Source: Antedon mediterranea (lineage: Eukaryota; Animalia; Echinodermata). Taken from it: a stretch of DNA of 64,000 nucleotides. The position numbers and the translations under genes were made by a program. Location: positions 12,276,001-12,340,000 of the forward strand of contig NC_092674.1 in the NCBI RefSeq assembly GCF_964355755.1, in the 5' to 3' direction. Each line of letters opens with the position of its first letter. The stretch's first letter is position 1. The notes beneath the pieces are model-generated. The model was not told the origin of the DNA and did no database searches. It worked only from the letters and a program-made list of their open reading frames with translations. Below are positions 588 to 63,845 of this stretch, in pieces.

Positions 588-1987
588 TAATAATATCTTA
601 TATCCCAGTGTCTTAAACTTGTAATATCAATTTAATAATTAATTTAATATTAATTTTATTTCATATAAAAAGGTACTTTATTTATCCAACATTCACAGGA
701 GATCTTAAATTGTACTGTATTCCTGTGACCTAGTTGCAATTGTTAATGGTAGACTACTTTTACAGTCTTACAATTTGTAACCTCTAATGTATGTTATGTA
801 CTTTTAAATGATGAACAAACAACAATTATTGGTTTTCCTTTTTTTTGAAGAACACAGTATTGTATTGTATTTGTTTATATCGTTAACAATTAAGATTGTA
901 AATAAGAAAATGTCAACAGACTAATTTTTGATTGAAACAATTTACAGTACACTGTCAGTATTGTCACGGTGGACTATGAGACACATTTTATCGAATATAT
1001 ACTAATATATAATTGCTGTTAAATGACATGAAGAAATGTCAAGATTTTGGTAGTTTAGTTTCTCTTATTTTATTGAAAACTAATTTTTTTTTTTTTTTTT
1101 TTTTCTCTAAAAGTCCAAATTTAGTTTAATTTTTATTATTACAAGAATGGGCCTATACATATTTTTATATATTTAAAAACAATAAAATGACAACATAAGA
1201 ATAATATTCTTATCAGTATTATTAAAATAAACTTTTAAATTGATAACTTCCTGTTATTATCATTAGTTTGTTTTAGTTGTTATTTAAATAAAGCTATGCA
1301 CTGTATATGTAACAAGTAGGTTATGCAGCAGACATAGGACACATTTCAAATAAAGGTGTCCTCAAGATATTACAGTTAAAAACACTCAATCCAGTTGTCC
1401 CTGTGCGATTTTTGGCTGCAATGCAAAATAATGGCTATTTTGAACAAATTACCATTTGAGCGCATTGTGAATTGATTATGGTAAATTTTTTTATTACAAT
1501 TTTATAAAAAAGGCTCTTTTCTTAATCGTAAAACTAAAAAATGAATCAGTTTTTTCAGTAAAGGTCTATAGTTGCATCTCAAGATGTGAAAGACAAGATA
1601 GTCAGTTGCATGTGCCCTTGTAAATCACTAAGTGAATCCTTGGTAGCATTACTCCTGACTGAATCATTAGCAGACTGGTGCATGCATATTTCATGTCAGC
1701 TATTTCATTTCCATATATGCATGTTTCATGCTTACCTTGTCAAAGCTATTATAAAAATCATTCATTTGATAGCGTTCTTTTGAATTATGTGATTACCTAT
1801 TTGAATTGATTCCTCGGTGATGGGTAGATCATTCAGTATTGAAATAAAACTTGCTGGGGGGAAAACTTATATAAGAATTATTTTGTTATGGTTTGAAAGG
1901 TGGAATTCTTTAATAAAGAAGTTTTGGATGTGAAGCCTAGGTCTACTGTTATCTAGCAAACAATGTATACAGACTCTAGTCTCTTGA

Positions 1988-27934: not shown

Positions 27935-28032
27935 GATGATGGCTTCCAATTGGCAGTGCAGTGCAGGCCTCTCCTACTCCAGAGTTTTATTCATTTTATA
28001 TAGTCACATTGATATCAACTTCGTTTTACAAT

Positions 28033-37000: not shown

Positions 37001-37638
37001 CATTCAGTGTATTAGCTATTTCATCTGGAGTACTTGTTTTACTTTTACCCGAAACTGCCAATAGAAAGTTACCAGATACAATGGATGAAGTCACAGAACT
37101 TAAAATGTAAGGGTTTGTTTGTAAATGTTTCAAAATTTTCATTCAGAATGTACTAATAAACCGCAGTCATTGAAATATAATGGGTTCAGTAAGATGTCTA
37201 ATCTATCAAGGCACGAATTATGATTATTATGTGTAATTTGTTGTTTTTTGTAATTATAAAGTTAATATTTGCATCAATTGTTGTCAGCGCTAGTAAGAGC
37301 ATGTTGCTTTGGTAGGTGTCTCTGTGTGTGTGGTTTATCTTCTTTCTAAGTTTATAGCATCGTTTCGACCAGGGAAGACGTGTAGACGTATGCTAATGTT
37401 ACAGGAATACGATCACTTTTGAATTTTATGGTCTGAACAAACATGTTAAAACGTAAAATAGCTATTTTATGTTAAACTAACCAGCCGTACCTTGAGTGTA
37501 TTTGTATAATTTCTTTCACTTTATTTTCTACACTATTTAATGTCGATTAATGATAATATTAACGTTTTATAATTTATTTTCAGATCTGTGACAAAATTAT
37601 CGTCAGCAGAATTAGGAGAAAAAGAAGCTATGACATAA
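28033..37638 (+). CDS. SLC22: SLC22 family organic cation transporter (Orct-like, MFS); complete, 10 exons, 545 aa
   Basis: Exons 28033-28443, 31056-31159, 32210-32364, 33289-33457, 33885-34014, 34589-34674, 35307-35515, 36417-36525, 36897-37106, 37584-37638 (TAA); total 1638 nt, in frame. Motifs: [78 protein letters not shown]. Confidence 0.96.
30163..30377. mobile_element. MITE with ~28-bp TIR and internal CACGGCAA repeats
   Basis: TACGGTGGCCTGTAAGTGTCACGGCAAC / GTTGCCGTGACGCTTACAGGCCACCGTA. Confidence 0.85.
32784..32890 (-). pseudogene. Diverged 5S rRNA-derived sequence (SINE head or pseudogene)
   Basis: rc: ..ACCACGTTGAAACATTGGTTCTCGCCAGGTCGCCGAAGTTAAGCAACA..CTGGGAATATCGGGTGCTGTA. Confidence 0.65.
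36100..36290 (-). mobile_element. L2/CR1-group LINE ORF2 C-terminal fragment
   Basis: rc encodes [13 protein letters not shown], the LHWLP.. RI motif; surrounding frame degraded. Confidence 0.55.
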
Positions 37639-40488: not shown

Positions 40489-42869
40489 GGTTTACGATGA
40501 AGTCGGTCGCGTCTGAAATCGGTCGCGTTTGAAATCGGTCGCGATAAAATCAACTTCCGGTATTTTGTATGGCGCGCCGCTAGAGCTATACTTTTGATTA
40601 TATCGGTCACGTTTGAAATCGGTCGCGTTTGAAATCGGTCGCGCTATTTTGTATGGATCGAGCGGGATGCATGCTAGAGCGGGATATACATTTTTCGTTT
40701 ATGTAGATTTAATTGATATTTGTTTTACTTGGTTAATAAATATTTATTATCAATCTTCTAATTTCAATCATTAAATTAATTAATTTTTTTTGTATTTCAC
40801 AGGTCTCGGAGAAGGACTGTGTCTTTTCAAAATGGCCATTTCTAAACACGTTTAAATATTATATTAGGCATAATGTTATATTAGGCATATCATAATTTAC
40901 CTCTATTTATATGTACTGTAATTAATATATTATGTAGAGAATATACGTCTGTCGTGTCTTTTATTATGCAAACAATTACGTAAGAGAACAATTTATTTAA
41001 AAACAATAATTTTTACAATATAGCCCATAAAGCCAGCGTATCCATTTTTATACTTATGCATACTGTGGCAGATTATATCATATACATGTCGTTAACAACA
41101 TACAATTCGATCACCTTATTTTTATTTCTATTTTATTTCTATCCGTTATGTAGGATAATATTAAGTGTATAATGATTATTGTTGAGGCAAATCACGTGTA
41201 TACTTTTATCTCTAATGTTTAAAATAGTTTTTAGTGAAATGATCATTATATGCGGATGGTTAAAAGACGAGTTACTGAAATAAACCCCCGAATAAGCCAT
41301 ATTGGAGATGCGCCTTCTATGATCGTGCAGCTGTTTCCTCTAACAATACGTTACTTTGCTGACGGGGTTTCCCCTTTTTAAAAAACACGCACTTATTAGT
41401 GTGTCAAATCATGGACAAAACACGTACGATCGTTGTCCATGGCGAAGTAAAGATGACGTCTATTACTAATAACCATGTTTGAAACGTCTATAGGCCTCCT
41501 GCACGTGTTTTTGTGAAACGATCCAATGAGCTATAGATGCTCGACGCGATTATGAGATCATGTTCATTCATTCATTCTTTATTTAGCCTTTAAAATCGAA
41601 ATACATTTAAAACATAGGTAACCAAATCAAGACACGTGGAAATATAAGGAGGCAAGGAAAACAAAAGCAATTAAAATCGCTGTAGCTCACAGGCTTGCTT
41701 ATCCATAATAATTCCGAATAAAGCACTTTTTCTATAATTTGACAGTATGAAAAATACGAATTCACGTATATACGTCGGCGATACTAGATTTTAATTTGAA
41801 TATCTTTTATTTCTTCATTTATAATAATCATTTAATGTAAATAATTAAGTAAGTGCAACTCAGTGTCTCGCATTCATACGCCGTTCGTAAATCTAAATGT
41901 TTAAATATCAGTGCAGATTACCTCTTTGAGAATCGTGTCCACATTATCCATACATTATTATGTGAGTGAGTGGCCGAGCGGTTAAGACAGTGGAACCGTA
42001 ATTACGTAGCCATAACATCGGCAGGGGTTCGAGGCTCACTCACTCCATGGTTCTGGTGGTAGAACGAGTCTTCTCGGATAAGGACTATAAACCGTAGGTC
42101 CAGTGTACACATCTTGCTCGTGTGCACTTTAAAGAACCTAGTACATCTTTCGAGACGAGTAGGGGGTTACCCCGGTGTATTAGTACATCACAGCCACTGA
42201 TCACCAACTGGGCCTTCTGGGAGACCAGTCTTTGACTGAAGAGGTTACCCAGTATAAATATAAATTTCAATCAATCAATTATTCGCACACATCTATCATT
42301 GTACATCATAGTCCTCTGTAGGCCGGTAGATTGATTTATAACGGCATATTATCTATATATTTCATTAATATCCTAAAACCATACGTAGGCCTAATTGTTT
42401 GCATAATAAAAGACACGACAGACGTATATTCTCTATATAATATATTAATTACAGTAGGCCTACATATAAATAGAGGTAAATTATTATATGCCTAATATAA
42501 CATTATGCCTAATATAATATTTAAACGTGTTTAGAAATGGCCATTTTGAAAAGACAGTCCTTCTCCGAGACCTGTGAAATACAAAAAAAAAAATTAATTT
42601 AATGATTGATAATAAATATTTATTAACCAAGTAAAAAATATCCACATAAATAATCTAGTTCCTAAAAAATATCAATTAAATCTATATAAACGAAAAATGC
42701 ATCGCATCCCGCCCGATCCATACAAAATAGCGCGACCGATTTCAAACGCGACCGATATAATCAAAAGTATAGCTCTAGCGGCGCGCCATACAAAATACCG
42801 GAAGTTGATTTTATCGCGACCGATTTCAAACGCGACCGATTTCAGGCGCGACCGATTTCATCTGACACC
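40489..42869. mobile_element. Foldback/Mutator-like non-autonomous transposon with ~490-bp TIRs
   Basis: 8-bp TSD CATACTTT (40481-40488 and 42870-42877); arms ~40489-40978 and ~42390-42869 are near-identical inverted copies with tandem TGAAATCGGTCGCG subrepeats. Confidence 0.92.
41961..42280 (+). mobile_element. tRNA-derived SINE with Deu/Nin-like central domain, inserted in the foldback element
   Basis: A box TGGCCGAGCGG, B box GGTTCGAGGC; CTCGGATAAGGACTATAAACCGTAGGTCC..TAAAGAACC..GAGTAGGGGGTTACCCCGGTGT resembles the DeuSINE domain; (TCAA)n tail. Confidence 0.8.
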
Positions 42870-45092: not shown

Positions 45093-45696
45093 ATCTTAAT
45101 AATGTTCTCTCTCCTTGTAATGTTGCGTCAGTTGAGTCGGTTTTATTTTAAATTACCCTACTTACATTTTGCCAAATGCGCACAATAAAGAATCGATTAC
45201 ACGTAAATATTACAAAAGAGTTAATATTAAACTAGCATTCAAAGTCAAACTATTTTAGTCAAGACATTTTAAGGGAGTTTGCCTATTTATCAAATGCCTC
45301 ACAAACGTTATTTTAACTCAAAAGTTCGGAGGAATTATTCATAATTTATCTAACATATTTTTCCTAGAAAACACATCATGCTAATATTGGATGTGATTGA
45401 CTGATTGGAGGCATCTGTACGGTCAGTAAAAATATCTTATTTTTGTGATGAATGGGGAGAAAGGACCATTCTGTTTTAGGTTTTCAGAAGCCTGTTGATC
45501 GTCACACACACTAGACAGCAGCTGATTAGAATTCTGATTAAAAATTATTTCAAAACGTGTGGTTTTATAATCCCAAGTTATACCAAGTACGGCTTCTAAT
45601 CATAATAATATTTATAATCATAATATTGATGCTTATGATGCACACTATATATCATTGGCAGAGTTTAATGTGTCAAGACATCAAAATAAACAATGC

Positions 45697-46409
45697 AAAT
45701 AATGTAGGATAATTCAGTCCCTCTAATGGAATTCAACAACAAATAATTTAGGATAATTCAGTCCCTCTAATTGAATTCAACAACAAATAATTTAGGATAA
45801 TTCAGTCCCTCTAATTGAATTCAACAACAAATAATTTAGGATAATTCAGTCCCTCTAATTGAATTCAACAACAAATAATTTAGGATAATTCAGTCCCTCT
45901 AATTGAATTCAACAACAAATAATTTAGGATAATTCAGTCCCTCTAATTAAATTCAACAACACATCATTTAGGATAATTCAGTCCCTCTAATTGAATTCAA
46001 CAACAAATAATTTAGGATAATTCAGTCCTTCTAATTGAATTCAACAACAAATAATTTAGGATAATTCAGTCCCTCTAATTGAATTCAACAACAAATAATT
46101 TAGGATAATTCAGTCCCTCTAATTGAATTCAACAACAAATAGTTTAGGATAATTCAGTCCCTCTAATTGAATTCAACAACAAATAATTTAGGATAATTCA
46201 GTCCCTCTAATTAAATTCAACAACACATCATTTAGGATAATTCAGTCCCTCTAATTGAATTCAACAACAAATAATTTAGGATAATTCAGTCCCTCTAATT
46301 AAATTCAACAACACATCATTTAGGATAATTCAGTCCCTCTAATTGAATTCAACAACAAATAATTTAGGATAATTCAGTCCCTCTAATTGAATTCAACAAC
46401 AAATAATTT
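45697..46409. repeat. 44-bp minisatellite, ~16 copies
   Basis: Unit AGGATAATTCAGTCCCTCTAATTGAATTCAACAACAAATAATTT; a variant unit (TTAAATTC..CACATCATT) recurs three times. Confidence 0.97.
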
Positions 46410-47071
46410 CATGAGATGAAAATGTGTTTCTTTGTTCCCATTGCACAAATATAATACATTTGTTTTATTAACAATTTGATTGGACGATTGTGGGTCATAT
46501 GACATTAACTAAATGTACTACAGTATGGTACTGAAATTCAGTTTTATGAATTTATTTTTGTTAGAGAGATTGAGCAACCACACGCTTGAGAAGAGTCCAG
46601 GCTGTTGATTGATTAAGTAACCTGTAGAGGCCTGCAGTCTATTTGTTCAACTCCATGTCCAAAATTGGAATACTGCCTTTTTGAATGGCAACATTATATT
46701 TTGTTATGATTTAACCAGATACAAAAATACATACAAATATAACAATATTTTGTCATTCACATACCTGACATCTCATGATGTCAGGTACGTGACCTATGTT
46801 AAAGTACTTGTATTACTTTGGTCTATTAAAACATAGTTGTATCTTGCACTTTTAATAACATTATTTCAATAGGTCTTCTATATTGTCCTTTATTAACTAT
46901 GTATCTCCTATTGTTCATACAAATTGTTTATTTGTTGAACTGAGTTACCATATAGCTGCAGTTTATACGGTCTATTGTAGGTTTTGAATAGACACTTTAG
47001 ACTGTTTCTAGAAATTCTACAATATCCATTCTCAACTTCCATCAAGGCTTTTACTACTTCCTCTCGTTGGT

Positions 47072-49130
47072 TCACATCTCTTTCTTGGTTTCTAGTAATT
47101 CTACAATATCCATTCTCTCAACTGCTCTCAAGGCTTTTACTACTTCCTCTTGTTGTTTCACATCCCTTCCTTGCTTACATCGCCATTGTACCAGTGATTC
47201 CATTGTTGCTTCTACAGTCAGCGCTGAAAACCTTCTCTCAGTTTGTGATAGCTCAACATCAGCAATACCAAGATGCCTACAGAAATTCTTCCAATCTGTC
47301 ATCTTCTCAGAAATTATCAGGAAGTCCAAGTCTGTTAAGCATCCTGTAAAAACACATTTAATTGACTTCATTAAATAAAATACATTTGGTTGTTTTTCTT
47401 CAAACATTCAGGTGCTGAAATTAAGCAACATTTCTGGAATGTAACATTCTATTTGTATTGGCAGAAATCATGAATAATGCATGAGCATAATTACTAATTA
47501 TTTTCTTATTATTTTATTCTTAGAATTACAAGATAGCTAACCTATTTACTGAATACAAGAGAACTTAACCCTCGAAAATATACAAAGAATGTGTCCTTAC
47601 GTAAAATACATATTGCACAATTTCATCACAACAACATAAGTTACATAAATATTTGATCATACCCCTGAAACATGGGTCAATATTGGATGTAGTTTACTGA
47701 TTGGAGGCATCTGTATGGCCAGTAAAAATACACTTGTTTTATCGGTGATGAATGGGAAGGCATGGATCATTCTCTTTTATGTTTTTTTCAGATGCGTGTT
47801 CATTTTAGACACAGTTTTGTTTGTTTGTTTTTATATATCTAGGCAAATTTCCAAGGATAATCATAAGCGAATTCAATCACTATCCTTCTTAAGGTGGCAA
47901 TCCCATTCACAAGACAAACATATACACAAGATGCTCTACATAAACGAAGTCTTATTACAAGTCTTTAGGGGTGGAGTTGTATTTGTCATTATAAAACATC
48001 CTGACATATGACAGGAATTGAACCCAGGAGCCATGGATTGGTAGCCAAATTAGCTTAATCAAATTTAAAACATTTCTTGTTTATCGAATGATTGCAGATG
48101 ACAATAGAAAGTCAAATAGTGATTATTTCTACAGTAGTATCAGGTATACATATAACATTTGTTTTTAATAACAATCATTACCCACCTTGTCCTGATTGGT
48201 CTGTAAACACTGCAACTTCTAAACTGACATCATCTTTGTATTCATATCTTGTACACAGGCTATCAGCTAAATCAACACGTCCTTGTTGTTTTAAAGCCTT
48301 GATCATTGTAGGTAGTTGATGTGCTTCTGCATGTTGACAGTTATTTCTCCATTGCACCAAAACTTCCATTATGGCATCTTCTACATGTTTGTTTTTGTCT
48401 GCAATGTTATTAACGTTGTCCCATTTGATTCCAAGTCGCACTGCTAGTCTTCTCCAACTTTGATGTACATTTTCACAGATGAATAGGAGATCTTGATCAT
48501 CAAAACAAGCTGTGAAATAATAAAAGCAATAAGGTAATGAGTTTTATTTCAATTAAATTAAACTTATTATTCTATTCAATATTTTATTTCGGAATCTCTC
48601 ATTCATAGAAAATAATATATAAATATTAAAAATAAATAAAATAATTTTGTATCAATTAACAAATTTAAGTAAAAATATGTTTATTAGAATAAATTTTTTT
48701 AAAGCATTCAGTACTATGAGCAAGATTTTATAACACACCTAAGACGATTCTTAATTTATTTTGAGAATTGCGAGTCATATTTTATTTAAATGTGCTATTG
48801 CTCTCTTAATGACGTCAATGAGAGTGCAATGGTTTTATATATGCACAAAAGTACCTGCAATGTCACCATATTTGTGAAACAGCAGATCAGCAAGATCATT
48901 ACGACCATGTTGTCTTAGTGCAGTGCACAATACTTGTTGCTGATTAAGGTCACTACCAATGTTGCTCCTCCAATGTTTCAGCATCTTTGCTGTAGCTTTA
49001 TCTGTCTGATTTTCATTATCAAAAATAGTATTCACTTTAGACCATGAAAGCCCCAAACGAACACCAAATCGTCTGCAGGAAAGATCCATCTCTCTGGACA
49101 CTTTATCAATAGTTAGGTCATCCACATAGT
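47072..49130 (-). CDS. ROCO gene exons: three C-terminal death domains
   Basis: 48855-49130 (CRRFGVRLGLSW..MLKHWR..LCTALRQHGRNDLAD), 48186-48509 (WRRLAVRLGIKW..VLVQWR..IKALKQQGRVDLAD), 47072-47343 (DWKNFCRHLGI..LVQWR..VKALRAVERMDIVE). Confidence 0.9.
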
Positions 49131-49328
49131 CTATATCAAAAAAACAAAATTATGAATCAATTGTGCTTTTAATCCTTCACAATAATAACTAAACATAATA
49201 CTAATTTTATCATTAAATATACCTTTGTAATCCTTGACATCTGACATACTCCTTTGTTTACTAGATCCCTTAACTTTTGATTTAAGTGATGTTTTCCCCT
49301 TTGTCATTTTATGAGCCTTAGCAACAGT

Positions 49329-49359
<31 letters not shown>

Positions 49360-52300
49360 GTATCAGATTCTGGATCTATGTTCTTCTGTCTACCAGCTTC
49401 TTTTGAGCTAGAAGCTACAATGACAATAAAACAACAAAATAGTGATAAAGTTAAACCAAGATGTACACTTGCTTGTTTTGTATTGTTATTTACTGTAATA
49501 TTACTCTTTCAGATCTAATAATCATAAATTTGATTTAGCAAAGTCATTTATAAATGCATTAGTTTGGCAATTCAGGAATTTGATTTCAAATGATGATTTT
49601 CAAAAATATACACTAATTATAATTTCTGTATCAGCTGAATTGAATAGTTTTTCATTTATAATAAATCCTTTACCATCAACTTGTTGGCATATATTGCGCT
49701 ATATAGTGTTGATATTATTTATATAGTGTTGATATTATATCTGTGAAAGTCAATTGCATTCATTCTATCGCATGATTTAAACATTAAAAACCTAGCATTG
49801 TACTGTAAGATGTTGATGACAAATATTCATAATAAATCTGTTACTGCATCTTTGTTATTCTTGGAGAAAATTAATCTCTTCACTTTACCAGTGATTCTTT
49901 GAAGTATTGAAGTAGAAGCTTGTGCATTGCTGTGACCATCACTGTCAGAATCTAGAGCTATGCTTTGTTTTGTACTATCTCTCGATTCAGATGCTAAACA
50001 AAAATAAATCGAAAAGCAACATTTTAAAAACTGTATAACCTAGATGTACATTTACAATAATACTATATTTTTTTAATTCTTGGATTATCATAAATGATGA
50101 TGACACAGACTTATTATATAAAAATCTGATAAAAGTTTTTTTTTTTACTTCAATCATTTTATGGCAATTTTATAATAGTTGAAAAATCGTAACTTCTTAT
50201 AATGAAGTAACATACAATTACTATTCATTTTTACATGAATAATAAAAGCAATCAAATAAAATATCTTATATCCATTAAGTATACTTAAATAAATAAAAAA
50301 TATATTCTTTATTTTCAAAATTGTTAACTTCCTCATACATTGTGTTTGGGTTGAGAAAAATTGTTTTTTTTTTTATTTTAGCCTATATCAGTGAAACTGA
50401 TGGATACTAAAAACACAAATCCTCTACCTTTTAGTACAATGTCTCCAAACAGATTACGGTAACGTTTCACTTCCATTCCTCTGCTTCCACATGGCAACAC
50501 ATCTTTGTCAAATTTGCGTATAACATGCATATGAGTATGTTCACCTTTTGAACCACACACACAAGGGATGTACATCTTTACTTTAACACCATGTGCATTC
50601 TTCTCACTCAAATAGTTCAATTCTCTTTCAAGAAAAGTTAGTACCTATAAAATTTAATAATTATACAAACTAAAAATTTGTAAATAGAGCAAAGAATGAT
50701 AACATGTAAGCGTGTTTCAGAATGGGATCACCAAAACATATTCAAATACAAAATACATTATTATTTTACTATTAAAGTGTACATTCAAATTTGCTTTTCA
50801 ATTATGTATAAGTTTTATAAATGATCAGAAAAATATTTACGCTTACAACTGGAACACAACATATCCATTTTGTTTAGAACAGAAAAAATAAAAGCTTGAC
50901 ATATTTGATTATTTGCACTGCAGCCTCAAGTTGTCCATGTTTAAATAAAGTAATTATTAATTATTGTTTAGTTTTCTTTAATCATCAATATTGTTAATAC
51001 TCTACATATCCAACTCATTATTTTTACATTAACTTACGTTCTTACAGATGCTAGGTTTTGGATCATCATCTTCAGCAAGGCCAGCAGCATTCATCATGTC
51101 TGTTCTAACTATTGTTGTCTTTGGGTACTATTACTTACCTTCTTACAGATGCTAGGTTTTGGATCATCATCTTCAGGAAGGCCAGCAGCATTCATCATGT
51201 CTGTTCTAACTATTGTTGTCTTTGGGTACTATTACTTACCTTCTTACAGATGCTAGGTTTTGGATCATCATCTTCAGGAAGGCCAGCAGCATTCATCATG
51301 TCTGTTCTAACTATTGTTGTCTTTGGGTACTATTACTTACCTTCTTACAGATGCTAGGTTTTGGATCATCATCTTCAGGAAGGCCAGCAGCATTCATCAT
51401 GTCTGTTCTAACTATTGTTGTCTTTGGGTACTATTACTTACCTTCTTACAGATGTTATGTTTTGGATCATCATCTTCAGGAAGGCCAGCAAGATTCATCA
51501 TGTCTGTTCTAACTATTGTTGTCTTTGGGTACTATCACTTACCTTCTTACAGATGCTAGGTTTTGGATCATCATCTTCAGGAAGGCCAGCAGCATTCATC
51601 ATGTCTGTTCTAACTATTGTTGTCTTTGGGTACTATTACTTACCTTCTTACAGATGTTATGTTTTGGATCATCATCTTCAGGAAGGCCAGCAGCATTCAT
51701 CATGTCTGTTCTAACTATTGTTGTCTTTGGGTACTATTACTTACCTTCTTACAGATGTTATGTTTTGGATCATCATCTTCAGGAAGGCCAGCAACATTCA
51801 TCATGTCTGTTCTAACTATTGTTGTCTTTGGGTACTATTACTTACCTTCTTACAGATGCTAGGTTTTGGATCATCATCTTCAGGAAGGTCAGCAGCATTC
51901 ATCATGTCTGTTCTAACTATTGTTGTCTTTGGGTACTATTACTTACCTTCTTACAGATGCTAGGTTTTGGATCATCATCTTCAGGAAGGCCAGCAGCATT
52001 CATCATGTCTGTTCTAACTATTGTTGTCTTTGGGTACTATTACTTACCTTCTTACAGATGCTAGGTTTTGGATCATCATCTTCAGGAAGGCCAGCAGCAT
52101 TCATTATGTCTGTTCTAACTATTGTTGTCTTTGGTACTATTACTTACGTTCTTACAGATGCTAGGTTTTGGATCATCATCTTCAGGAAGGTCAGCAGCAT
52201 TCATCATGTCTGTTCTAACTATTGTTGTCTTTGGGTACTATTACTTACCTTCTTACAGATGCTAGGTTTTGGATCATCATCTTCAGGAAGGCCAGCAGCA

Positions 52301-55300
52301 TTCATCATGTCTGTTCTAACTATTGTTGTCTTTGGGTACTATTACTTACCTTCTTACAGATGCTAGGTTTTGGATCATCATCTTCAGGAAGGCCAGCAGC
52401 ATTCATCATGTCTGTTCTAACTATTGTTGTCTTTGGGTACTATTACTTACGTTCTTACAGATGCTAGGTTTTGGATCATCATCTTCAGGAAGGCCAGCAG
52501 CATTCATCATGTCTGTTCTAACTATTGTTGTCTTTGGGTACTATTACTTACCTTCTTACAGATGCTATGTTTTGGATCATCATCTTCAGGAAGGCCAGCA
52601 GCATTCATCATGTCTGTTCTAACTATTGTTGTCTTTGGGTACTATTACTTACCTTCTTACATATGCTAGGTTTTGGATCATCATCTTCAGGAAGGCCAGC
52701 AGCATTCATCATGTCTGTTCTAACTATTGTTGTCTTTGGGTACTATTACTTACCTTCTTACAGATGCTAGGTTTTGGATCATCATCTTCAGGAAGGCCAG
52801 CAGCATTCATCATGTCTGTTCTAACTATTGTTGTCTTTGGGTACTATTACTTACGTTCTTACAGATGCTAGGTTTTGGATCATCATCTTCAGGAAGGCCA
52901 GCAGCATTCATCATGTCTGTTCTAACTATTGTTGTCTGCAATATCAAAAATCAATTTTTATTTTCTTTTCTTTTGACAATTGTTTCTCTTTAATTTTCAT
53001 TAAAGCAATTGCCACTTAATCTATAATCTATATATAATCTATTATGATCTATATATATATATATAATAATTAATATTATAAACATATAAGATAAATGATA
53101 AAAACACCTTATAATGTAGATAATTGCCATATTTTCACCGATTTTCTGCCAACATGTTTCTGTTTGTCTGTCCTATTTAATGCTTAGTGTGTTTTATTTA
53201 TATTTATATTAATTTTTATGCAGGTAAATGTTGAACAAGCATTTGCTTTTTATTTTAGTCTATTTCAATTTTACTGTTATTTTATTATGTTATATCTATA
53301 ATGGAGAATATAACTGAAAATCTAAAAACTGATAATGTTTCCATTATAATTCTATCTGAGACTGATATTTTCTCAGAGGTAATTAAACATTTATAGTTAT
53401 GTTCCTAAGATGATACTTTCTCAGATTTAGTTTTTAGTCTTATAACATCAAATTTATTAAGTCTACCTGAAACAAACGGCAATTGTTGATGGTAGCTACA
53501 TTTAGAACCACAAAATGATGGCCATCAATATGCAGTTCTACATGCTCATATGACAATGTAGGCTCAACATCTTCCATTTGAAATTCCTCAATAAATTTTG
53601 TTGAGACACGTTGGAAGAGATCATCTGGTAGGTAGCCATCAAAGTCATGAAAGAGAGAAATAGCACGTTTCTCTTCATATTCAACAGCCTTTGTATCATC
53701 ACGTTGGGGCTTTAGGCGTGAAAGAACATAGAACGTTCGTTCAACATTCTATAGAGACAAAAATGGAACATGAGTAGTAGATGGAATATATGAAAAAATA
53801 ATTGAACTAAATATTTTAAATAAAATGTAAATACCTCTTTACTCCTTTTTTCACACATTAACCCAAAGGTTTGCATCAGAGACACAAAGAAGATAATCAT
53901 CTCAGCTGAATCATCCTTCCATATATGCCGCAGCAGTCTTTCATCTAGTTTACCCCCATTTAAATTTCTCCAAAGCTGTTTCATAGATGGCTAAACAAAT
54001 ATAAAAGCACAAGTGTAATTTGTCAATGCAACAAAGTAATTACTGTTCTTCTGGTCAGTAAAACCCCACCTTTGGGAAAACCTTATTGAAACTTAATTAC
54101 TTGTGCAATGAATGAGGTTAATATCACAGATAACATCTATTAAGGGGACACTTTGTTGGGTCTTCCCTTAATGGGAGTGCTACACTAATACGTTTACAAG
54201 CATATATTTTAGTATTAGAATCTATATATAAATTTACGTAAGGGCAAAATTCGGTAAATCGCGCCTTACTTTTAGAATTTTTACTCGATGGTATGTAAAG
54301 TTGGTTCGTACTTTCGGTACTGATTTTAAACACCTGATGTAACCCTGTTTACTAATTAAATTAAGTTAGATAATTAGTTATCGACGATTAAAACGAATTT
54401 AGGTTCAACGATTTGCCCCAGATAGGGGTGTTTTCCGATCGTGGTATACACTGTCTAATGGATGTCCATCTGGAAAAATACCCGCCACAAAAATGCGAGG
54501 AGGCTTCGCATTTTCCTATCTCCTCCTACGATAATTGTTTGTAATAGCTGAAAACCGGTTGAACAGCTCGAGTACAGTATCATAATGTTGAAGACAGGCC
54601 GATTTTCTTTAAAAAATGCTATTTTGATAGATTTAATATACGTTTATACAAATGTATTGATTTGCGATGAATGGAACATTCCAATATCTGTGTCGTTCCA
54701 CAAGTGTCTATTCCCTCAGGCGTCGTAAAGGAAAGTACTGTATACTCATAACAGAAATTCGATCCATTTTTTTTCCCATCTGTGCTGCAGAGGTTGGATA
54801 TAATTTTTTTTTAACGGATAATGAGCTAGCGTTTTCAGTCGCCGTAATTTAATATTTATTACCGATTAAATCGAATTATGAGTTGCCCCGAATAGAGGTG
54901 GTTTTCACAAATTGTTTAACATTATATATAAACATACGTCGTAGTGTATCGTTACATGTACTGTACTATTTATTTCAATCGACTACGACGCAATGTTTTA
55001 CTGTGTTTAGTGGTATATTATTTGTAAAACATGTTAATTAATATTTCGTTACAAAATAAAGAATATATTTAAAAATTGTTCCTCTTTGCACCCATCCTCT
55101 TCCCCATCTCTCAACCATAATGTTACATACAAAACACAAATTAAGTTTGTTTAAATTTGACTTAAACAATTGGTCTCATTTTGTGACATCTTTCTCTTTC
55201 GGAAGTAATTCCCAGTGTGCTAATTTTAGTTAATCTATTTAATCGTTCCTGTAAACAACATATATTATTGTACATTTGAAATCGCCAGTTTTTTAACGCT

Positions 55301-58300
55301 GAAATTACTGTGTATTCGAAAACCATCTGTGGGCACGACCTAGATGGTACGCGAGCGAAGCGAGCGTACCATCTAGTATAATAGAATTACTGAGGTATAA
55401 TTTCGTTCTCTGTGTGGCAGATATTACATGTTTACAGCTAAATCCTAAATGTTTACATATGATATTCACCAATGACTGACACCACTCAAAGAAGTGAAGT
55501 TTGCAAACCTGAAGGCTGGGATCTATAACTGTGATGATTGTTTTAAACTTGTCAACTACTCCCATCAAATCTATAACAATTTTTTCTTTGAGGATCTTGT
55601 CATCTGGGTAGAACAGAATCTCACCGATGTCGTGCAAATACTCAAGAAACTGTTTTCTGTCAGTTATCTTACAACTAGCAAGTAAATCATTAATCTAAAA
55701 GGCAAATAAATATTATAATGAAAAATGTAACGAAAACAAAATTATTGAGTAATTACAAACTGGTTTTCTGCTGATGTTATCAATCATTTCGTTAATGTTG
55801 AAAGGTTGTTTATATAGGATATAATACTTCATCATGCAAGGGTAGATTTGAAATCTGAAAGTTTCCTAACCAACAGTAAACTCAAGGTTTACCACTTACT
55901 TACTTCAATAATTGTTATTGCCAAACAAAATGTTCATTTTGTTTTTGGCACAATTGGTACTAAAACAATTGTACCATTCCTGTTTGATACACATTTGTTG
56001 AAGATTCACCATAAACAGTCAATTAACACAGACAGCAAAGCAGGGATACTGTTAATGTTACTATCAATAACAAGTTTTTTTTTCACTTTAACACCATTCG
56101 ATGCAGCAATAAAAAAACAGGGTTTAATGCTTTAATGTGATTTAAGAATAAACAAATGTAATGGATGTTAAACACTTATTATTAAAACACATTGTTCAAT
56201 CAATTTTTTTTTATATAAATGTATCTATTCTAACCTGAGATATTGGTAGATACAGTTTGTCTTTTCGTAACTTTTGTATTTCCTGCAGTACTTGTAGCCA
56301 TTTGATTGGCAAAGTAAGAATCATCATCTGGACTAATTTTTGTATTTGGAGAATGATTTTAGAAGCACCGCTCTTTTCAAATGAGACACTGTTTTCAATG
56401 GTAAAGAGCTCTTCTTGAAACACCATGTCCTCAAATGGTTTTCCTTCCAGGGCTTTCCAAAGTTTTTTCTCTATTGCCTTTACCTAAAATAAATAACATC
56501 ACTGTAACATGGTGGGACCAAACCCTATTAGTCACACAGGCTATTCACCCCTTACTCTCCCCGTTGTCTACTTAACTTGGAACACTACATTCCTGAGGTG
56601 GGTCTTCCAAGGAAAGTCAATCAGGATGTGGTACCATTTAATTAGTCATCCTTCCTGTCCCCTTAATATAAATATATGTTTTGTAGTTAAGTTAGTTAGT
56701 TCGGGTATTGATTCTTGAGACTATAACATCAGTCAGAATCACTACGTTTCACATTGTTTTATAATATTACTTTTTGATTGAATAAATATTATATTTTGTA
56801 CATTGAATAATTGTGTGCCATCGTTATTGTCTTGGCCCTCGACACGACTACCGTTACAATCACATTGGAATTAAACGTATGTCATGGGAAAATTTAAAGG
56901 GTGTCGTACCAGCCAAGACTCCACCCCCACCCCATTTGTAAACTGCAAGAAGTCTTTTATTTAATTTATGTCACGCATTTATGTACCCAGTGTACACTGG
57001 TATAATTATACCAATATAAGAAAATGTGTGCTAAATCATACATATTTGTATACCCTTTTATTTGTTTTATTATTATAACAGATGGAACATTATTATCACA
57101 ATGAAAGCGCACATACTGTAGTATCTCATTTATGAAAAAATCTTCGATTTTTACAAAAAAATATCATTTGAAATACTTTTAATCTTTAGCCTACATTTTT
57201 TTAAAAATTGAAATTAAGGTAAGATAATCATTTAATCATAAGCCAGCACAGTACAGTAGTATGTGCATGCCATGACAATGAAACAACTGTCCACCTGATT
57301 ACATAATAGGGACTTTACGAAACAGGATGGTTAGTTTTCTGTGTTCGCTGGAGCACAAAATTATAAACAAGACATAGCCGTTTTATTAGTTACCCACCAC
57401 GTGAAGACGACAACGACCGGTCAGAGAGAGAGAGAGAGAGAACCACGTCTACTAGCCTACTAGACTATAATAGGGCTACTCTAGCTAGGGGACCTAACTA
57501 GGCTACTTACTAGATATGGGTGTATTGATTTGGGTTTATGGCCTAAAAGCTAGAACAGCATTATCTCTAGTCTCCCTCCCCTGTCTCACGGGGTCCCTAT
57601 TGAATCTCTTTGCCTTGGTGGTACGACATATGCTTTCTAGCTAGGGACCTTGCAAACCAACGCCGCGCAAAATGTATTGCACGGCAGCAATTTTAATCCA
57701 AAAACAATGTTATTTCGTTAAACAATTAAATTAGAAGTGAAAATTACACTTTAAGTGTTTTGAACTGTATATTTAAGGTTATATATACTAGTTGTATTTC
57801 TAATCGTTCTTCATGAGCACCTAATAGTATGAGCATGACATGACGTATAAAACAATCGCCCACCTGATTACGCAATATATGGTTGCCAATGTTAGGGATG
57901 AAACTACATATTGTTTCCAATGAATCAATTACAATATACAATTTTGTAATGTTTAATGAAACAAAATATGATAACATATGTACCATTTGTTGTCTTTCTT
58001 GTTCAGTTTTACCAAGGCTCTCATAATGTGTACCAATCAGCATTATCTTGTTTTTCTGTCCTGTTCTTACGTTTACAAAAACTGAACGAATCCAAAACAG
58101 AATGAACTCAAGATTTGTCATTCGATGTTCATACATTTTTCCCTAAATCACAAAGAAAATGAACACAATTTTCATTTTAAATTCTTAAACAGGTAGTTTG
58201 AAAACATTGTGGAAAATTATCTTATTATTGTGGTAATAATAGCAGCACACATTTATATAGAAAAACAACACTATCATGGAAATGGAAATAACAACAATCA

Positions 58301-58786
58301 TGTATCAGGCCTCTGCTATTTGCACAGTTTTTGTTAAGGTAAAGGAAGATTTAGATTTTAAGATTTATATATATTTTTATATGGTATAGTTTATTCCATT
58401 CTGTAAGGGGCGGGTTTCCCGCTGTTGAATGAGTTTGAATAAAAATAAAATAAAATAAGAAATAAACATTTTATGTATATTCAAGTACATAGAACATTTT
58501 AAATTTGTAAAATCTACTTACAGTTGTTGGATCACGAACTTTAGCTGGGGCATCAAGATCTTGTTTCAGGTTAAATACCACACATACAACAGCATAAGAC
58601 ACCATGAATATCTATTAAACATAATCATAATTGTCAGTATTAAAAACCGTTTTCACATGTGTCAGTATACTGGCACAACTAAATATTTGATACTTATTTT
58701 TTTCCTCACAAACTGCATGTTCATCTTGGAAACATTTACAATCTGAAACATTGGTTTAATAAATAATGAATGTTTTATTATTACAT

Positions 58787-58818
<32 letters not shown>

Positions 58819-61800
58819 CCCCCTTGCTATCCATCTATGCTAATATTACATTATGGTAGACATCAATGAATACTATTTTATTAAAAGTCTCCCAAACCTG
58901 GATACCCTTCGGCTGGCAAAATATGTCTGAGTTTACAGAAATTCTGATATTCCAAATGTATTTTTAAAGGTAAAAAGAATTTTTAGTTTCTGGTAATTAG
59001 AGACTAGAGACTGAGTTGACTGTATTCAATTAAATGAAGAATAAAATAATTTATAATATTGTAATAATAATAATTGTATTTTATAACAGATATACTGTTA
59101 CCATATTAGATCAACAGATAACATTTTTGTAATACCTTAGGGGTAGATTATTACTTCAAATCAAGTGTCAGTGGTGAAATTGTAACGAAGCCAAAAGACA
59201 ATTTTACTAGATCCTGATCCCAACACAACCTCAGAAGGAGGTATATGTATTAATAAGTACAAACTCTTTAGTAAGGTACAAGTATATCTTTATTCTATGG
59301 TGTCTCAAACTGAACTGTACAAAGTTATGGGTAAACGGTGATCAGTGATTGGCTATTCTGGCATGATAATTATATTACTACTACTGTAGTATTGTAACAG
59401 GAGGCATACTAAATTAAAGGCAAAACTAAGAAATTAGGTAAATCAATACAATTTACCCGTTGTATCACATGGTATATAGGCTGCCCTCCAAAGTCCCAGA
59501 AGTTCATAACAAACTTGTTGCTGTCCACTTTAGAGTCACCACCTATTCTTATAGAGCGAAGTTGGCTTTCAACTTTGTTCACGACCCCTTTAGGAATTTG
59601 TGGTCTATCAAGTTTTTCTTCATACACTGGTTCTGTTGTGGTAAAATAATAATACGCAATACAACAGTTTAATTCAATATCATTTCAACATTTAAAAACA
59701 AAATAGAAATCCATCATAATAAAGCTGTTCCTTTTTACTTAAATCTTTGATAATTGTAAAAACAGACAAGACAGATGGGGGCAGGCTGAGAATATAGGAT
59801 GACACTATAACTTTTTTGTTAAAAGAAAAGGTAATTCCAATGCAATATTTAAGTATTCTAAACCTTATCCTTTCCAATCAATGGTTTAGTGATGAGTTTA
59901 TTTAACCACATTGTACTGCAAGTTGAATAGATTACACAGCAGTGTCATACAATATACAAATACTAGTATTAACTGTCAAAGTAACTTGCAGGATAATATG
60001 TTCATTAGCATACACTGATGATTATGATTACATTTCCGCTTCTTAAATCATTTCAATATTTCTGATATCATTACTATGCATGAACAGCACAATCAAGCAC
60101 ATTTCAAAATAAATATTTACCCTCCTTTTGTGGGCTTGGCATTGGATTTGAACTTTTTGATGTTTCAGCAAATTTGACTTCCTGTTTTGATGTTGATGCT
60201 CCTGTGGGGTTTTTCTCTTTCTCATGTCTACTTTCTGAAAAATGTGTTGATATAATTAAATATGATGCTATCTTGTGATAAGGAGCATAATACATTAACA
60301 TTAAATAACATTAGGCTTTAAATTCAAATTAACTTTACCAGAATTAAAGTTTACAGTAATGAATCATTTTTTGTATAAACATGTCTTTTTATATTAAATT
60401 GTATATGTATTAAATCATTTTTGTACCAATTTGTGGTTTTGTATTGTTCAATTTATATTGACTACTTTTTTAAACAGTTAAACATGTTTTACAGCAGATT
60501 ACAATAACAATAAAGACATTTTAACTAAATTTGAATTAACTGTAATTAACATCTTTTACCAGATTTGGTTTTCTCCTTTGATGGTCCTGCTCTTGGTGTG
60601 TATCCTTCTGTATAGCGTGGACTTTTCAACATTTGTTTAACTGTGACATCAGTGACAGCATCCTGATACATGTCTGAAGCTTTTTAATAAAAAAAATGTT
60701 AATATATTCACATTATATTATTTTTTACACTGTTACATATTGGTTTTTAAAAGCATTGAAACCATTTTAATGTTGTTGTTGCAATAATTGATCCTCCTTG
60801 GTCAAAGTGGATAATTATTATATGATATTAAAATGGCATATTACTTATTTGGAAAAAAAAATACAAAAACACATTGTGGCATGATAGAGCATGTCACAGG
60901 GTGAATTTAAAAAAAAATATTTTGGTTGTTTTTTAACAGCAACATGTATCTGAATAAAGTGAATACTTACAAATATCCTGCGTTGTTTCTTTCAACATTT
61001 GCTTGTTACTGGGATCTGGTGTACACACCGTTGTTTTAACCATTGCATCGGTTATTAGATGCACTGGATTAAACCTATGGCAAAATGACATTATATAATT
61101 CAGAAAAGAATGTTTGCATTAATAATCTAGAGACACATAATTTGATGGTCTACTGTAAATACTTTGTTTTTACGTTGAATTATAATCTTATTTTAAACCG
61201 TATTTTGAGGTTCACAATATCATGTTGAAAACAAATTGAAAGCATCAGTTAACGTTTCTATCATTACTTTTTCACTTATCCTTACAGACAGTATAGACCC
61301 TCAACAACGTGTGTTCACAGGAACTATGCGTGTACAGTTATATACCAATCAAACAATAATACATCTACGCAATAAAATATTTAGGACACTGTTCCCAACT
61401 GCAAGTAGCAAACAATCAATCAACAAAAATATAATATAATGGGCTTACTCTTTTCTTAAAAGAGAAGTTATAGTAGAAGTTTTTCCAACATTCTCAAGTC
61501 CTACAAAAATAGTTCTTCCTTGATTAAACTCTGTTTGTCCTTCTTCGAGTGCATTTTGAAATGCTTTCACCGCATCAGGTCCTCTTGCCAATATCTCCTC
61601 TGGAACATGTATATCTTAAAATAAACAAAATAAATTATTGTATAATTTTCATTTTTTCATGGAAATTCTAAAGATGTTGGTATCTGAAATATATGCCTGT
61701 CATTGGCAGAAAATACAGTGCCAACTCATTATTTCACATAGGCTATTAAACAAGAAAACTCAGATCTAGAAAACTCAGAAATATCCATTATTAATCAGAG

Positions 61801-62844
61801 GGATTAAAAAAAATATTGTATACCTTTATAAAATATTTCGTTGCAGTGTTATAGATAAGGGTTTGCATAATTTGATTAATGTTTTGATTTAATTATTAAA
61901 TTTAATATATTAGCTGAATATTATTTAACAGCGTGGTAACCTGAATAGCAGAATAAAATCTGAGTTTTCTAGAACTAAACAATTCAGATATATCTGAAAT
62001 CCGAGTTTTCTAGACACCCATTAAACAGTGCATACATTTATTGTAATCTTTATCAGGATTTTCTTTTCTTTATTTATTTATCCAAATTGTGAGAAATAGC
62101 AAATTAACAAGAGTGTAGGAGATCACAAAAATATTGAGAGATAACACTCATACAATTATTGGAAGAGTTGGGAGGTCTGAGTTAGTCTGGAAGTTAGCAT
62201 ACAGCCAGCTGTCTTCACTTACCTTCAATTGTATTTGCCAACTCTTTTTCATCAGATTTTCTGAGCGCTTTAACAAGTTGCGAACGCTTGGACTCAGAAG
62301 TTGATAATTTCATGGCCCAAGCATTCAGCATTTTATAAATCATGTTAACTTTATTATCAGGATTATCTTGTTTAAAATGATCGATATCTGCCATGGTAAA
62401 CTCAAGATTTACTGCTAGTTGTTCCCAATTACCAAAAACCTTAGTGGCTATGTTGATTAATTCTTTGGTTGTTATATCTATATAAAATAAGACATTCTCA
62501 TAATTTGTAAAACGCTCAATGCGAAAGGAGATACATAAAACACAGTGTTCACAGACAGCTCCAGCATGTCTATGTCATAATTGTCTCCAAATCACTGTGC
62601 ACAGGCTTAATTGAATCTTTGGCTGAAATATTTTCAGGAAATATTATTAACAACTTTGCTACTGACATTTGGCAAACACGTTTTCATTTTTAAAAACACA
62701 CACACACAAACCCTTTCACATTTCAGCCAAATCTGTAATATGAAAAACCCAGCAAATCAGTGTAAACTGTACCTCTATAGTATAAAGGTTGTTAAAGAAT
62801 ATTCATACCTGATGATGTGATATCTATGAATGGTAAAGGTCCGC
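47072..62844 (-). CDS. ROCO-family GTPase with multiple death domains (Death-ROC-COR-Death x3), 5'-truncated; ~1185 aa in window
   Basis: Exons in transcript order, all AG/GT with consistent phase: 62809-62844, 62223-62477, 61449-61614, 60971-61074, 60560-60679, 60121-60234, 59457-59632, 58522-58611, 57984-58142, 56235-56483, 55509-55694, 53835-53990, 53467-53748, one 81-nt repeat exon (e.g. 52855-52935), 50428-50644, 49889-49993, 49223-49414, 48855-49130, 48186-48509, 47072-47343 (TGA). Motifs: VPEEILARGP..ALEEG, P-loop GLENVGKTS, WDFGGQPIYH, LIGTH, LPIKW, YLHDIGEILFY, FYVLSRL, GYLPDDLFQR. Confidence 0.92.
50428..55694 (-). CDS. ROCO gene exons: COR domain region, including the 19-copy exon array
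   Basis: FLEYLHDIGEILFY..IVIDL, GKLDERLLRHIW, LMQTFGLMC, FYVLSRL, YLPDDLFQRV; the frame continues through the 27-aa repeat exon into VLTFLERELNYL. Confidence 0.85.
51038..52935 (-). repeat. 101-bp tandem array: 19 copies of an 81-nt ROCO coding exon separated by 20-nt GT..AG spacers
   Basis: Minus-strand unit ACAACAATAGTTAGA...ATCTGTAAGAAG (TTIVRTDMMNAAGLPEDDDPKPSICKK) + gtaagtaatagtacccaaag. Outermost acceptor ttgatattgcag at 52936 onward; outermost donor gtaagttaatg below 51038. Confidence 0.95.
54221..55376 (+). mobile_element. Non-autonomous Helitron (family H1, copy 3) in a ROCO intron
   Basis: A|TC start, same 5' ~450 bp as copy 2, ends CTAGATGGTACGCGAGCGAAGCGAGCGTACCATCTAG|T. Confidence 0.9.
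56235..61614 (-). CDS. ROCO gene exons: ROC small-GTPase domain
   Basis: G1 GLENVGKTS (61449-61614), G3 WDFGGQ (59457-59632), beta strand AVVCVVFNL (58522-58611), G4 MLIGTHYE (57984-58142), G5-like FTIENS (56235-56483). Confidence 0.9.
61753..62019. mobile_element. Small MITE with AGAAAACTCAG subrepeats
   Basis: CTAGAAAACTCAG is inverted against CTGAGTTTTCTAG; flanked by the direct repeat ATTAAACA. Confidence 0.6.
62223..62477 (-). CDS. ROCO gene exon: N-terminal death domain (phase 1-1)
   Basis: DITTKELINIATKVFGNWEQLAVNLEFTMADIDHFKQDNPDNKVNMIYKMLNAWAMK...LVKALRKSDEKELA; fits the death-fold pattern W..LA..L, ML..W, L..AL. Confidence 0.85.
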
Positions 62845-62894: not shown

Positions 62895-63105
62895 ACAACC
62901 GCTAACAACAGCTAATGTCGAAACAACTGTTAATGTAGAACAATCCACCGCTAATGTAGTAAAACCGCCAGCTAATGTAGAAACAACAATAGCTTATGTA
63001 GTAAATAAAATCAACACGAGCTAATGTAGAAACGGTCAACATGTTATGTAGTAACGAAAATTGCCTCCCAGCTTATGTAGTTACTATCGCCATCTAATGT
63101 AGAAA
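62895..63105. repeat. Degenerate tandem repeat with GCTAATGTAGAAAC core
   Basis: About 8 irregularly spaced copies. Confidence 0.8.
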
Positions 63106-63114
63106 ATATTTCAC

Positions 63115-63845
63115 TAAATCATGTGCAAATGCATCGATCTTTACTTAGCTATCAGTCTTTCCACCTCTTGTAAGCAACCAACTTTCTAAACGACCACGCA
63201 TCGTAATCAACCATCTCTGTTTTTTGCTTTTCATAATCGACCACCTCTCATAAGCAACTACCACTCTTAACGACCACACCTCTCGTAGTAACGACCAACT
63301 CTTGTAAATGACCCCCTCTATTGAACGACCACCATCACTGTTAAGGGACCGCTTCTCATTTATTTTTTGTCTCAGGACATGTCTACCAAATTCGGTGCCT
63401 AAACAGGGACGATGGTCGTTCAATAGAGGTGGTACTGTAACTTTCGAGAGGTCGTTCTGACGGGAGATGGTCGATTATGAGAAGAGGTCCTTTAATAGAG
63501 GTCGTTAAGAGATGTGGCTGCTTAAGAGAGGTGGTCGATTATGAGAAGCAGTCCCTTAATAGAGGTGGTGGTCGTTCAATAGAGGTGGTCCTTTAATAGA
63601 GAGAAATAGGTCTTAAAAGATACGGTCACTAACGAGAGGTGTGGTCGTTAAAAGAGGTGGTCGCTTACGAGAGGTGGTCGATTATGAGAGGTGATGATTC
63701 CTTACGAGAGGTGGTCCATTATGAGAAGCGGTCCTTAACGGAGATGGTTGCTTATGATGTGTGGTCGTTTGAGAAAGTTGGTTGCATACGGAAAGTGGAA
63801 AGACTGACAGACTAAGTAAAGATCGATGTATTTGCACATGATTTA
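63115..63845. mobile_element. Foldback element with GAGGTGGTCG/CGACCACCTC internal repeats
   Basis: TAAATCATGTGCAAATGCATCGATCTTTACTTAG..AGTCTTTCCAC is inverted against GTGGAAAGACT..CTAAGTAAAGATCGATGTATTTGCACATGATTTA. Confidence 0.85.

Follow-up and report, generated by a model that had tools for sequence, protein, structure and literature searches.

Minisatellites that reiterate a splice donor have been described from a number of human genes, and the accessible text of PMC1557585 lists such arrays in LMNB2 (100 bp, 10-15 copies), in intron 4 of PDGF (81 bp, 16-18 copies), in intervening sequence (IVS) 7 of F7 (37 bp, 5-9 copies), in IVS13 of CBS (15-20 units) and in IFI6, a gene also designated 6-16. 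According to the same text, only the first donor is used in LMNB2 and PDGF, and likewise in F7, by upstream-first selection. Here we describe an array that, judged from its sequence, appears to belong to this known kind, situated in an echinoderm, the feather star Antedon mediterranea. It occupies positions 51038 to 52935 of the window, i.e. the whole stretch of 64,000 nucleotides that was analyzed, and lies on the minus strand within a death-domain ROC-COR (ROCO) gene, where one COR exon is present in 19 copies. We estimate at roughly 0.6 the probability that the array simply reiterates a splice donor, with copy 1 being used, the rest being removed as intron and an ordinary ROCO protein being the result.

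The likeness to the human minisatellites, insofar as these are covered in the accessible text, includes near-identical units arranged head to tail, a first unit that spans an exon-intron border, similar unit size and copy number, and a donor repeated many times ahead of one real acceptor. What may be new is that the Antedon unit comprises an entire in-frame exon together with the AG preceding it, and that the spacer recurs in at least two paralogues, unlike what is described for the human arrays. In a search of the literature, neither this locus nor an array of whole exons with spacers of this type was found described, most subscription papers and supplements being outside its scope.

Dscam1-type clusters, as presented in the available portions of PMC6071210 and PMC5740500, share with the Antedon array the tandem duplicates of equal length and phase and a spacing too short for the joining of adjacent members; in the latter source, a donor-to-branch distance below 50 nt is given as the cause of mutual exclusion in 57 human clusters (9%). 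Unlike in Dscam1, the Antedon copies are 97.8% identical, the internal acceptors lack signals of their own and docking is not above background. In brown algae, ROCO genes have shuffled 72-bp exons, each of which encodes one positively selected, self-contained leucine-rich repeat (LRR), and splice variants of these genes are annotated (PMC11378527, from the part of the paper at hand). Common to both cases are the GTPase family, the tandem short exons and a candidate immune role, whereas the Antedon exon is predicted to start in the middle of a strand and to end in the middle of a helix of COR, shows no signal of selection, and belongs to a protein that has death domains and in which no LRR was found. 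Finally, animal introns shorter than 30 nt are reported only from myxobolids and Dicyema in the accessible text of PMC13644364. The introns of myxobolids and Dicyema japonicum resemble the Antedon spacers in being GT..AG stretches of about 20 nt with A residues before the AG, but they occur genome-wide in reduced parasites, as that text has it, while here they would be 18 isolated cases among other introns of at least 86 nt.

The array and its host gene

A sequence-only reading of the window had proposed 19 exon copies separated by GT-AG spacers of about 20 nt, and this was confirmed both by Tandem Repeats Finder (period 101, 18.9 copies, 98% matches at 51032-52937) and by a copy-by-copy check of the sequence. 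The spacers are 20 nt long in 17 out of 18 cases and 19 nt in the remaining one, so the lone indel (at about 52135) does sit in a spacer, as had been stated. The elements of the gene and the array are as follows.

47072..62844, minus strand: host gene, 20 mapped exons encoding a death domain, ROC, COR and three death domains
62223..62477, minus strand: N-terminal death-domain exon (Pfam PF00531, E=2.4e-11 on 62224-62484)
53467..53748, minus strand: upstream constitutive COR exon, 282 nt, phase 0
51038..52935, minus strand: array in which an 81-nt phase-0 COR exon occurs 19 times in tandem, with 18 GT..AG spacers
52855..52935, minus strand: copy 1, the sole copy with the native T-rich acceptor of the gene; C-terminal Asn
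52835..52854, minus strand: first spacer, consisting of 6 nt equal to the true downstream donor, a 12-nt middle and a terminal AG
52825..52827, minus strand: read-through TAG in copy 2, codon 734 of the mapped open reading frame (ORF) and stop of the RefSeq model P0030
52129..52147, minus strand: the sole 19-nt spacer (one-base deletion), after copy 8
51038..51118, minus strand: copy 19, adjoined by the native downstream intron; start point of the RefSeq model P0036
50428..50644, minus strand: downstream constitutive COR exon, 217 nt
47072..49130, minus strand: three C-terminal death-domain exons (48855-49130, 48186-48509 and 47072-47343)

The spacer begins with 6 nt identical to those of the native downstream intron (10 of the 13 initial positions agree without gaps), and has only its last 2 nt in common with the native upstream intron. 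For its 12-nt middle, no template longer than 8 nt was found in the rest of the gene and no match covering it elsewhere in the window. The duplicated piece corresponds almost exactly to an exon with the barest of splice signals. This is a striking fit, even if the array had been singled out for such a look to begin with.

Nine exon positions vary across the 19 copies, yielding 11 distinct exon sequences and 10 distinct peptides. The mean pairwise identity is 97.8%; an identical peptide is encoded by 9 of the 19 copies, and the remaining peptides differ by 1-3 residues. The exon ends in Asn in copies 1, 5, 8 and 19 and in Lys elsewhere, so that the Lys-ending peptide quoted in the sequence-only reading holds for most copies but for neither of the terminal ones. 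Internal copies are marked by variants at exon positions 24, 32, 38, 65, 68 and 72, and at positions 38, 65, 68 and 81 the same variant is shared by copies that do not neighbor each other. Eight of the changes are non-synonymous and one is synonymous (1.9 synonymous expected, P=0.42), and none creates a stop. All 19 copies are indeed free of stops and indels, but with 6 stop-making changes among 243 possible single ones the probability of no stop in nine is 0.80; the clean frames are no more than chance would give, and unremarkable because so few exon sites vary. The variation fits neutrality, with no signal of selection in the sequences, and the array is likely recent.

The assignment of the host to the death-domain ROCO genes, likewise made from the letters alone, is supported by the Pfam domains Death, Roc and COR-A and by a match to a known structure. 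In the paralogue P0002, identical to the 5' half of the window gene at 622 of 658 residues, Pfam identifies Roc (E=4.6e-10) and COR-A (E=6.5e-16), while the predicted model of another paralogue, P0001, matches the COR domain of C. tepidum Roco (3dpu/3dpt, E~2e-7). The order ROC then COR was hence read from P0002 and P0001 rather than from a scan of the full protein of the window gene itself, and the three C-terminal death domains are based on three Death stretches found by Pfam in P0001. The latter protein was also considered as an orthologue of the window gene, which was ruled out: P0001 is a paralogue, and the window gene is represented by P0030 (XP_071950750.1).

If copy 1 is the only copy included, a single ORF of 1185 amino acids extends over the 20 mapped exons. 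P0030 is identical to the joined 5' exons of the window over 724 out of 724 residues, its first 65 residues lying outside the 20 mapped exons, and P0036 (XP_071950749.1) matches the 3' exons exactly; the window is therefore the A. mediterranea locus of both. RefSeq divides the gene at the array: the P0030 model runs past the end of copy 1, crosses the spacer and stops at the TAG of copy 2, and P0036 begins in copy 19 only. Reading through a spacer had been said to hit a TAG. The TAG is reached, but outside the spacer, after 9 extra residues and 8-10 nt into the next copy.

To place the exon in the protein, a structure model of P0001 was used (26-row alignment, mean predicted local distance difference test score 66.7, weaker in COR with about 50-60). 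In this model the exon corresponds to residues 326-352, i.e. the end of a predicted strand (321-330), a low-confidence loop (331-346) and the start of a predicted helix (347-360). The exon ends are conserved, with T326, T327, I328, P345 and C350 in 24 of the 26 alignment rows, and its middle is variable, positions 331-344 being conserved in 6-16 rows. The exon peptide lies in a predicted COR loop, which is not a known recognition surface or domain. Additional copies would extend this loop, and the modelled structure would not forbid even the boldest of the readings weighed below. The alternative exons of Dscam1, by comparison, encode parts of immunoglobulin domains.

A search with the upstream exon returned 27 proteins, every one of them from crinoids (Antedon mediterranea and Anneissia japonica). 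A repeated exon motif was found in none of 37 homologous proteins, as 29 had one match and 8 had none, the latter being models that begin inside the exon or stop before it, or fragments. Searching with the region (proteins of 30-755 amino acids) gave 6 matches among 9 candidates, all of them single-copy models and none new.

Splice signals and the probable use of copy 1

Five internal acceptors were compared with all 20 real acceptors of the gene. The fraction of T at positions -22 to -4 is 0.21 in the internal acceptors (5/5) and 0.42-0.74 in the real ones (20/20), in agreement with the earlier statement that only the 5'-most copy has a pyrimidine-rich acceptor. Moreover, the internal acceptors have 3-4 AGs at positions -25 to -4 (real acceptors 0-1) and an AG-free stretch of 6-7 nt (real 16-90 nt), and a YTNAY motif at -45 to -15 is found in none of the five, as opposed to 16 of the 20 real ones. 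When scored with a position weight matrix (PWM) derived from the 20 real sites, four internal acceptors fell between the 34th and 51st percentiles of 428 intronic decoy AGs; the in-frame TAG 9 nt upstream of the internal copies was no better as an acceptor (29th percentile). The suggestion that the window also uses purine-rich AAG acceptors (60680 and 36416) did not hold, since both of these have upstream T-tracts, unlike the spacer. The other 18 introns are 86-1518 nt long with T-rich acceptors, a comparison of lengths that covers this one gene only. As to the donors, their sequence is good in every copy. Taken from these signals, the internal copies do not seem to have, each for itself, the usable acceptor expected of alternative exons; the array rather looks like a single functional acceptor context followed by pseudo-sites.

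Because copy 1 alone has a T-rich acceptor, it is likely the copy in use. The minisatellite unit would consist of one whole COR exon, its GT donor and a bare AG. It may have originated in a short tandem duplication with filler, with unequal exchange accounting for the growth of the array and the mixing of its copies, and may then have spread or persisted among neighboring paralogues. Copy 1 would be defined as an exon and copies 2-19 would leave inside one intron of 2,210 nt, the spliceosome presumably picking the most upstream donor, which would give a single-copy ROCO protein. A slip to a later donor would keep the spacer and stop at codon 734, and such a leak would lower the output rather than diversify the protein. 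This reading builds on the anatomy of the array, the quality of its acceptors, the intact single-copy ORF and a read-through tail shared with a paralogue (see below), as well as on an upstream-first choice of donor that would have to carry over from human genes to an echinoderm.

Three models had been offered by the sequence-only reading, and the one in which only the copy at 52855-52935 is used fits best, with decoy-like internal acceptors and an intact single-copy ORF. A fourth outcome had been missed, namely the joining of the copy-1 acceptor to a later donor, always with a premature stop. It had also escaped notice that a paralogue carries the spacer.

Paralogues and sequencing-run contigs

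Arrays in the paralogues were deduced from the ends of RefSeq proteins and not from paralogue DNA. P0031 (XP_071950043.1), which differs from the window gene at 10 of 290 residues in COR, has the identical 9-residue read-through tail, and on this sequence evidence the array does not appear to be unique to the window gene. P0035, P0032, P0033 and P0028, whose accessions are adjacent to that of P0031, begin inside the exon. The same is true of P0037, while P0002 stops just before the exon, so that P0002 and P0037 are perhaps a third split gene. It is thus at this exon that RefSeq breaks up two or perhaps even more (a third being possible) of the near-identical death-domain ROCO genes on the 31.9-Mb scaffold, where about six paralogous loci are situated (those of P0029, P0031/P0035, P0034, P0002 and P0037 among them). 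Continuous single-copy models are found in P0029/P0001 and in P0034, a near paralogue with ankyrin-like N-terminal repeats as judged by eye. The Asn/Lys exon end segregates among the paralogues as well as within arrays.

In COR, the window gene differs from P0034 at 2 of 290 residues, and P0031 from P0029 at 4 of 290; the two spacer-bearing genes are consequently not each other's closest relatives. Given these relationships, the array would either be present throughout the cluster and be bridged by splicing, or have moved by ectopic exchange, or have been lost twice.

Thirteen public sequencing runs, none of them listed as RNA, cover part of 52835-54000, and contigs of four of these were examined; X10, with no more than 4 scraps of contigs, was set aside. 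In X5, which we guess to be an RNA run, contigs bridge 53467 and 52935, and likewise 53835 and 53748, both times with GT-AG ends. A contig also comes loose at 52852, and its overhanging letters correspond to the opening bases of exon 50644. Junctions flanking a single exon copy, whichever copy this may be, exist for the window gene or for a near-identical paralogue. No joint leading from the exon end back to an exon start was listed for X5, to which we attach no weight, as contigs can show presence only and the DNA run provided no positive control, the spacer being at the edge of the stretch. Another X5 contig skips 669 nt (52938-53608), from inside the upstream exon to the region of the copy-1 acceptor, and may reflect either an alternative donor inside exon 53467-53748 or a form belonging to a paralogue. 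X6 (organism B) contributes a 126-nt contig in which the upstream acceptor, the exon and the native downstream intron follow one another, i.e. the single-copy state. The exon in this contig differs at exon position 24 (window 52912), a position that is also changed in copy 9.

Read depth at 52912 and 52960 is 3378 and 330, respectively, in X1, and 316 and 269 in X6. The presence of the array in a second individual was at one point argued from these values, and the argument was withdrawn, as depth gives no copy number and paralogues pile up to 1300-3200 on neighboring exons. X1 was furthermore rejected as a second individual, since it may be the source of the assembly itself.

Competing explanations and significance

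Several points weigh against the sole use of copy 1. The PWM is small and discriminates weakly, the real acceptor at 60234 scoring -3.9 when left out, as low as the spacer. Donor position -1 is C in copy 1 and G in 15 of the 19 copies, which makes the later donors look stronger. RefSeq models a read-through (P0030) and a restart (P0036) and not copy 1 joined to exon 50644, and this split can be a multi-mapping artefact or the real use of a distal donor. The RefSeq isoforms P0032 and P0035 differ only by Asn or Lys at the exon end, as if the donors of two copies were in use. The two X5 junctions are on separate contigs and may come from paralogues, and in the data examined no transcript of an array-bearing allele was seen in full, nor any molecule crossing the spacer. 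Lastly, the accessible text of PMC1557585 describes the use of two further donors in CBS and IFI6 (6-16), and upstream-first choice is known there from mammals and not from echinoderms.

Several of these points would be expected if the array largely disabled or truncated the gene, with the copy-1 acceptor joining later, stronger donors or with spacers being retained. In that case the majority of mRNAs would terminate at codon 734, and either undergo degradation or specify a death domain, ROC and partial COR without the C-terminal death domains. All 18 possible joins of acceptor 1 to donors 2-19 do stop at this codon with the loss of the three C-terminal death domains, and a spacer-retaining transcript of any kind loses the exons of these domains. 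The G at position -1 of internal donors, the further donors of CBS and IFI6 in the available part of PMC1557585, and the RefSeq models of both spacer-bearing genes (identical 9-residue tails in P0030 and P0031, and 3' halves that start inside the exon) argue for the same outcome. However, the single-copy ORF is intact over 1185 amino acids, split models would also be expected from shortest-intron mapping of multi-mapping reads, and that source has no donor beyond the first in use in F7, LMNB2 or PDGF. Altogether, we hold a disabled or truncated gene, the main rival, to be possible but unlikely.

It is quite improbable that the internal copies serve as mutually exclusive or combinatorial cassettes, with the spacer AGs in use and each donor n joining acceptor n+2 or one beyond it, as in an incipient Dscam-like cluster, which was among the models first offered. 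A phase-0 exon is in frame at any number, the spacers of 20 nt lie in the range of steric exclusion, i.e. a donor-to-branch distance below 50 nt (PMC5740500, accessible portion), there are 10 distinct peptides, the modelled loop at 331-346 could tolerate extra copies, and the sole difference between P0032 and P0035 is their last exon residue, which is copy-specific. Yet the internal acceptors resemble decoys, being without T-tract, AG-free zone and branch-like motif, and the divergence needed for Dscam-type alternatives is not seen, the copies being near-identical (97.8%), 9 of 19 peptides the same, the others 1-3 residues apart and the variation neutral-like. The Asn/Lys isoforms can be explained by different donors or by cross-mapped reads from paralogues. 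Pairing of the docking-selector type was also evaluated and does not stand above the natural background. The unit pairs with the downstream intron at -25.0 kcal/mol, including a perfect 10-bp core (50874-50883, the complement of exon positions 11-20), and only 0/100, then 3/300 and 4/300 shuffles were as low, but the same energy was reached by 17 of 155 natural tiles. The three other pairings were at chance.

An assembly artefact, be it of the whole array or of the greater part of it, seems to us very improbable. In its favor, the native downstream intron comes after the exon in contigs of X1 and X6, although copy 19 gives that too. The 11 distinct exon sequences, the variants shared by non-adjacent copies and the same spacer tail in a second gene (10 of 290 residues different in COR) all stand against it, and assemblers tend to collapse such arrays, not to invent them.

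That the spacers are true 20-nt micro-introns, giving up to 19 x 27 amino acids in the COR loop, is hardly credible, for despite the perfect donor and terminal AG in register and an animal precedent (medians of 22-27 nt in myxobolids and similarly short introns in Dicyema), the precedent lineages have short introns genome-wide and reduced signals (PMC13644364, accessible text), the other 18 introns of this gene measure 86-1518 nt with T-rich acceptors, and no annotated homologue carries a repeated peptide.

The window holds two additional young minisatellites, at 45696-46409 (44 bp x 16, 96%) and 5927-6261 (20 bp x 17, 89%), and such arrays are therefore common in it. Degenerate repeats of 17-35 bp occur at 62904-63754, upstream of the first mapped exon. 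At 47004-47173, just past the stop codon, the end of the last coding exon is duplicated in tandem (86 bp), and a trinucleotide run at 49329-49359 encodes poly-Asp in exon 49223-49414 and varies in length among the paralogues. At 40498-42860, short arrays of 16 and 17 bp are mirrored at both ends in opposite orientation, suggestive of an inverted-repeat mobile element. Pieces of plus-strand ORFs at 10538-22682 and 27940-37110 are reminiscent of an integrin beta subunit and of a transporter of the SLC22 type.

If the array does reiterate a splice donor as we propose, it would offer a naturally occurring system in which the choice of splice sites could be studied in an invertebrate deuterostome, with 19 variant-marked donors competing for one acceptor, in a ROCO family whose near-identical members include some that are annotated with the break and some that are not. 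The proposal would also explain why RefSeq splits at least two, and possibly three, genes of the cluster at one and the same exon. The importance would be much greater if the internal acceptors or the 20-nt introns were used. We think it improbable that the array acts as a living splicing module that is on the move within the crinoid death-domain ROCO cluster, with its spacer AGs in use (as 121-nt skip-one introns or 20-nt introns). Were this nonetheless the case, mRNAs would vary in which copies, or how many copies, they contain and an acidic surface loop of COR would grow in steps of 27 residues, and the locus would represent either a Dscam-like cluster at birth, at minimum spacing, or the first introns below 30 nt in a free-living deuterostome.

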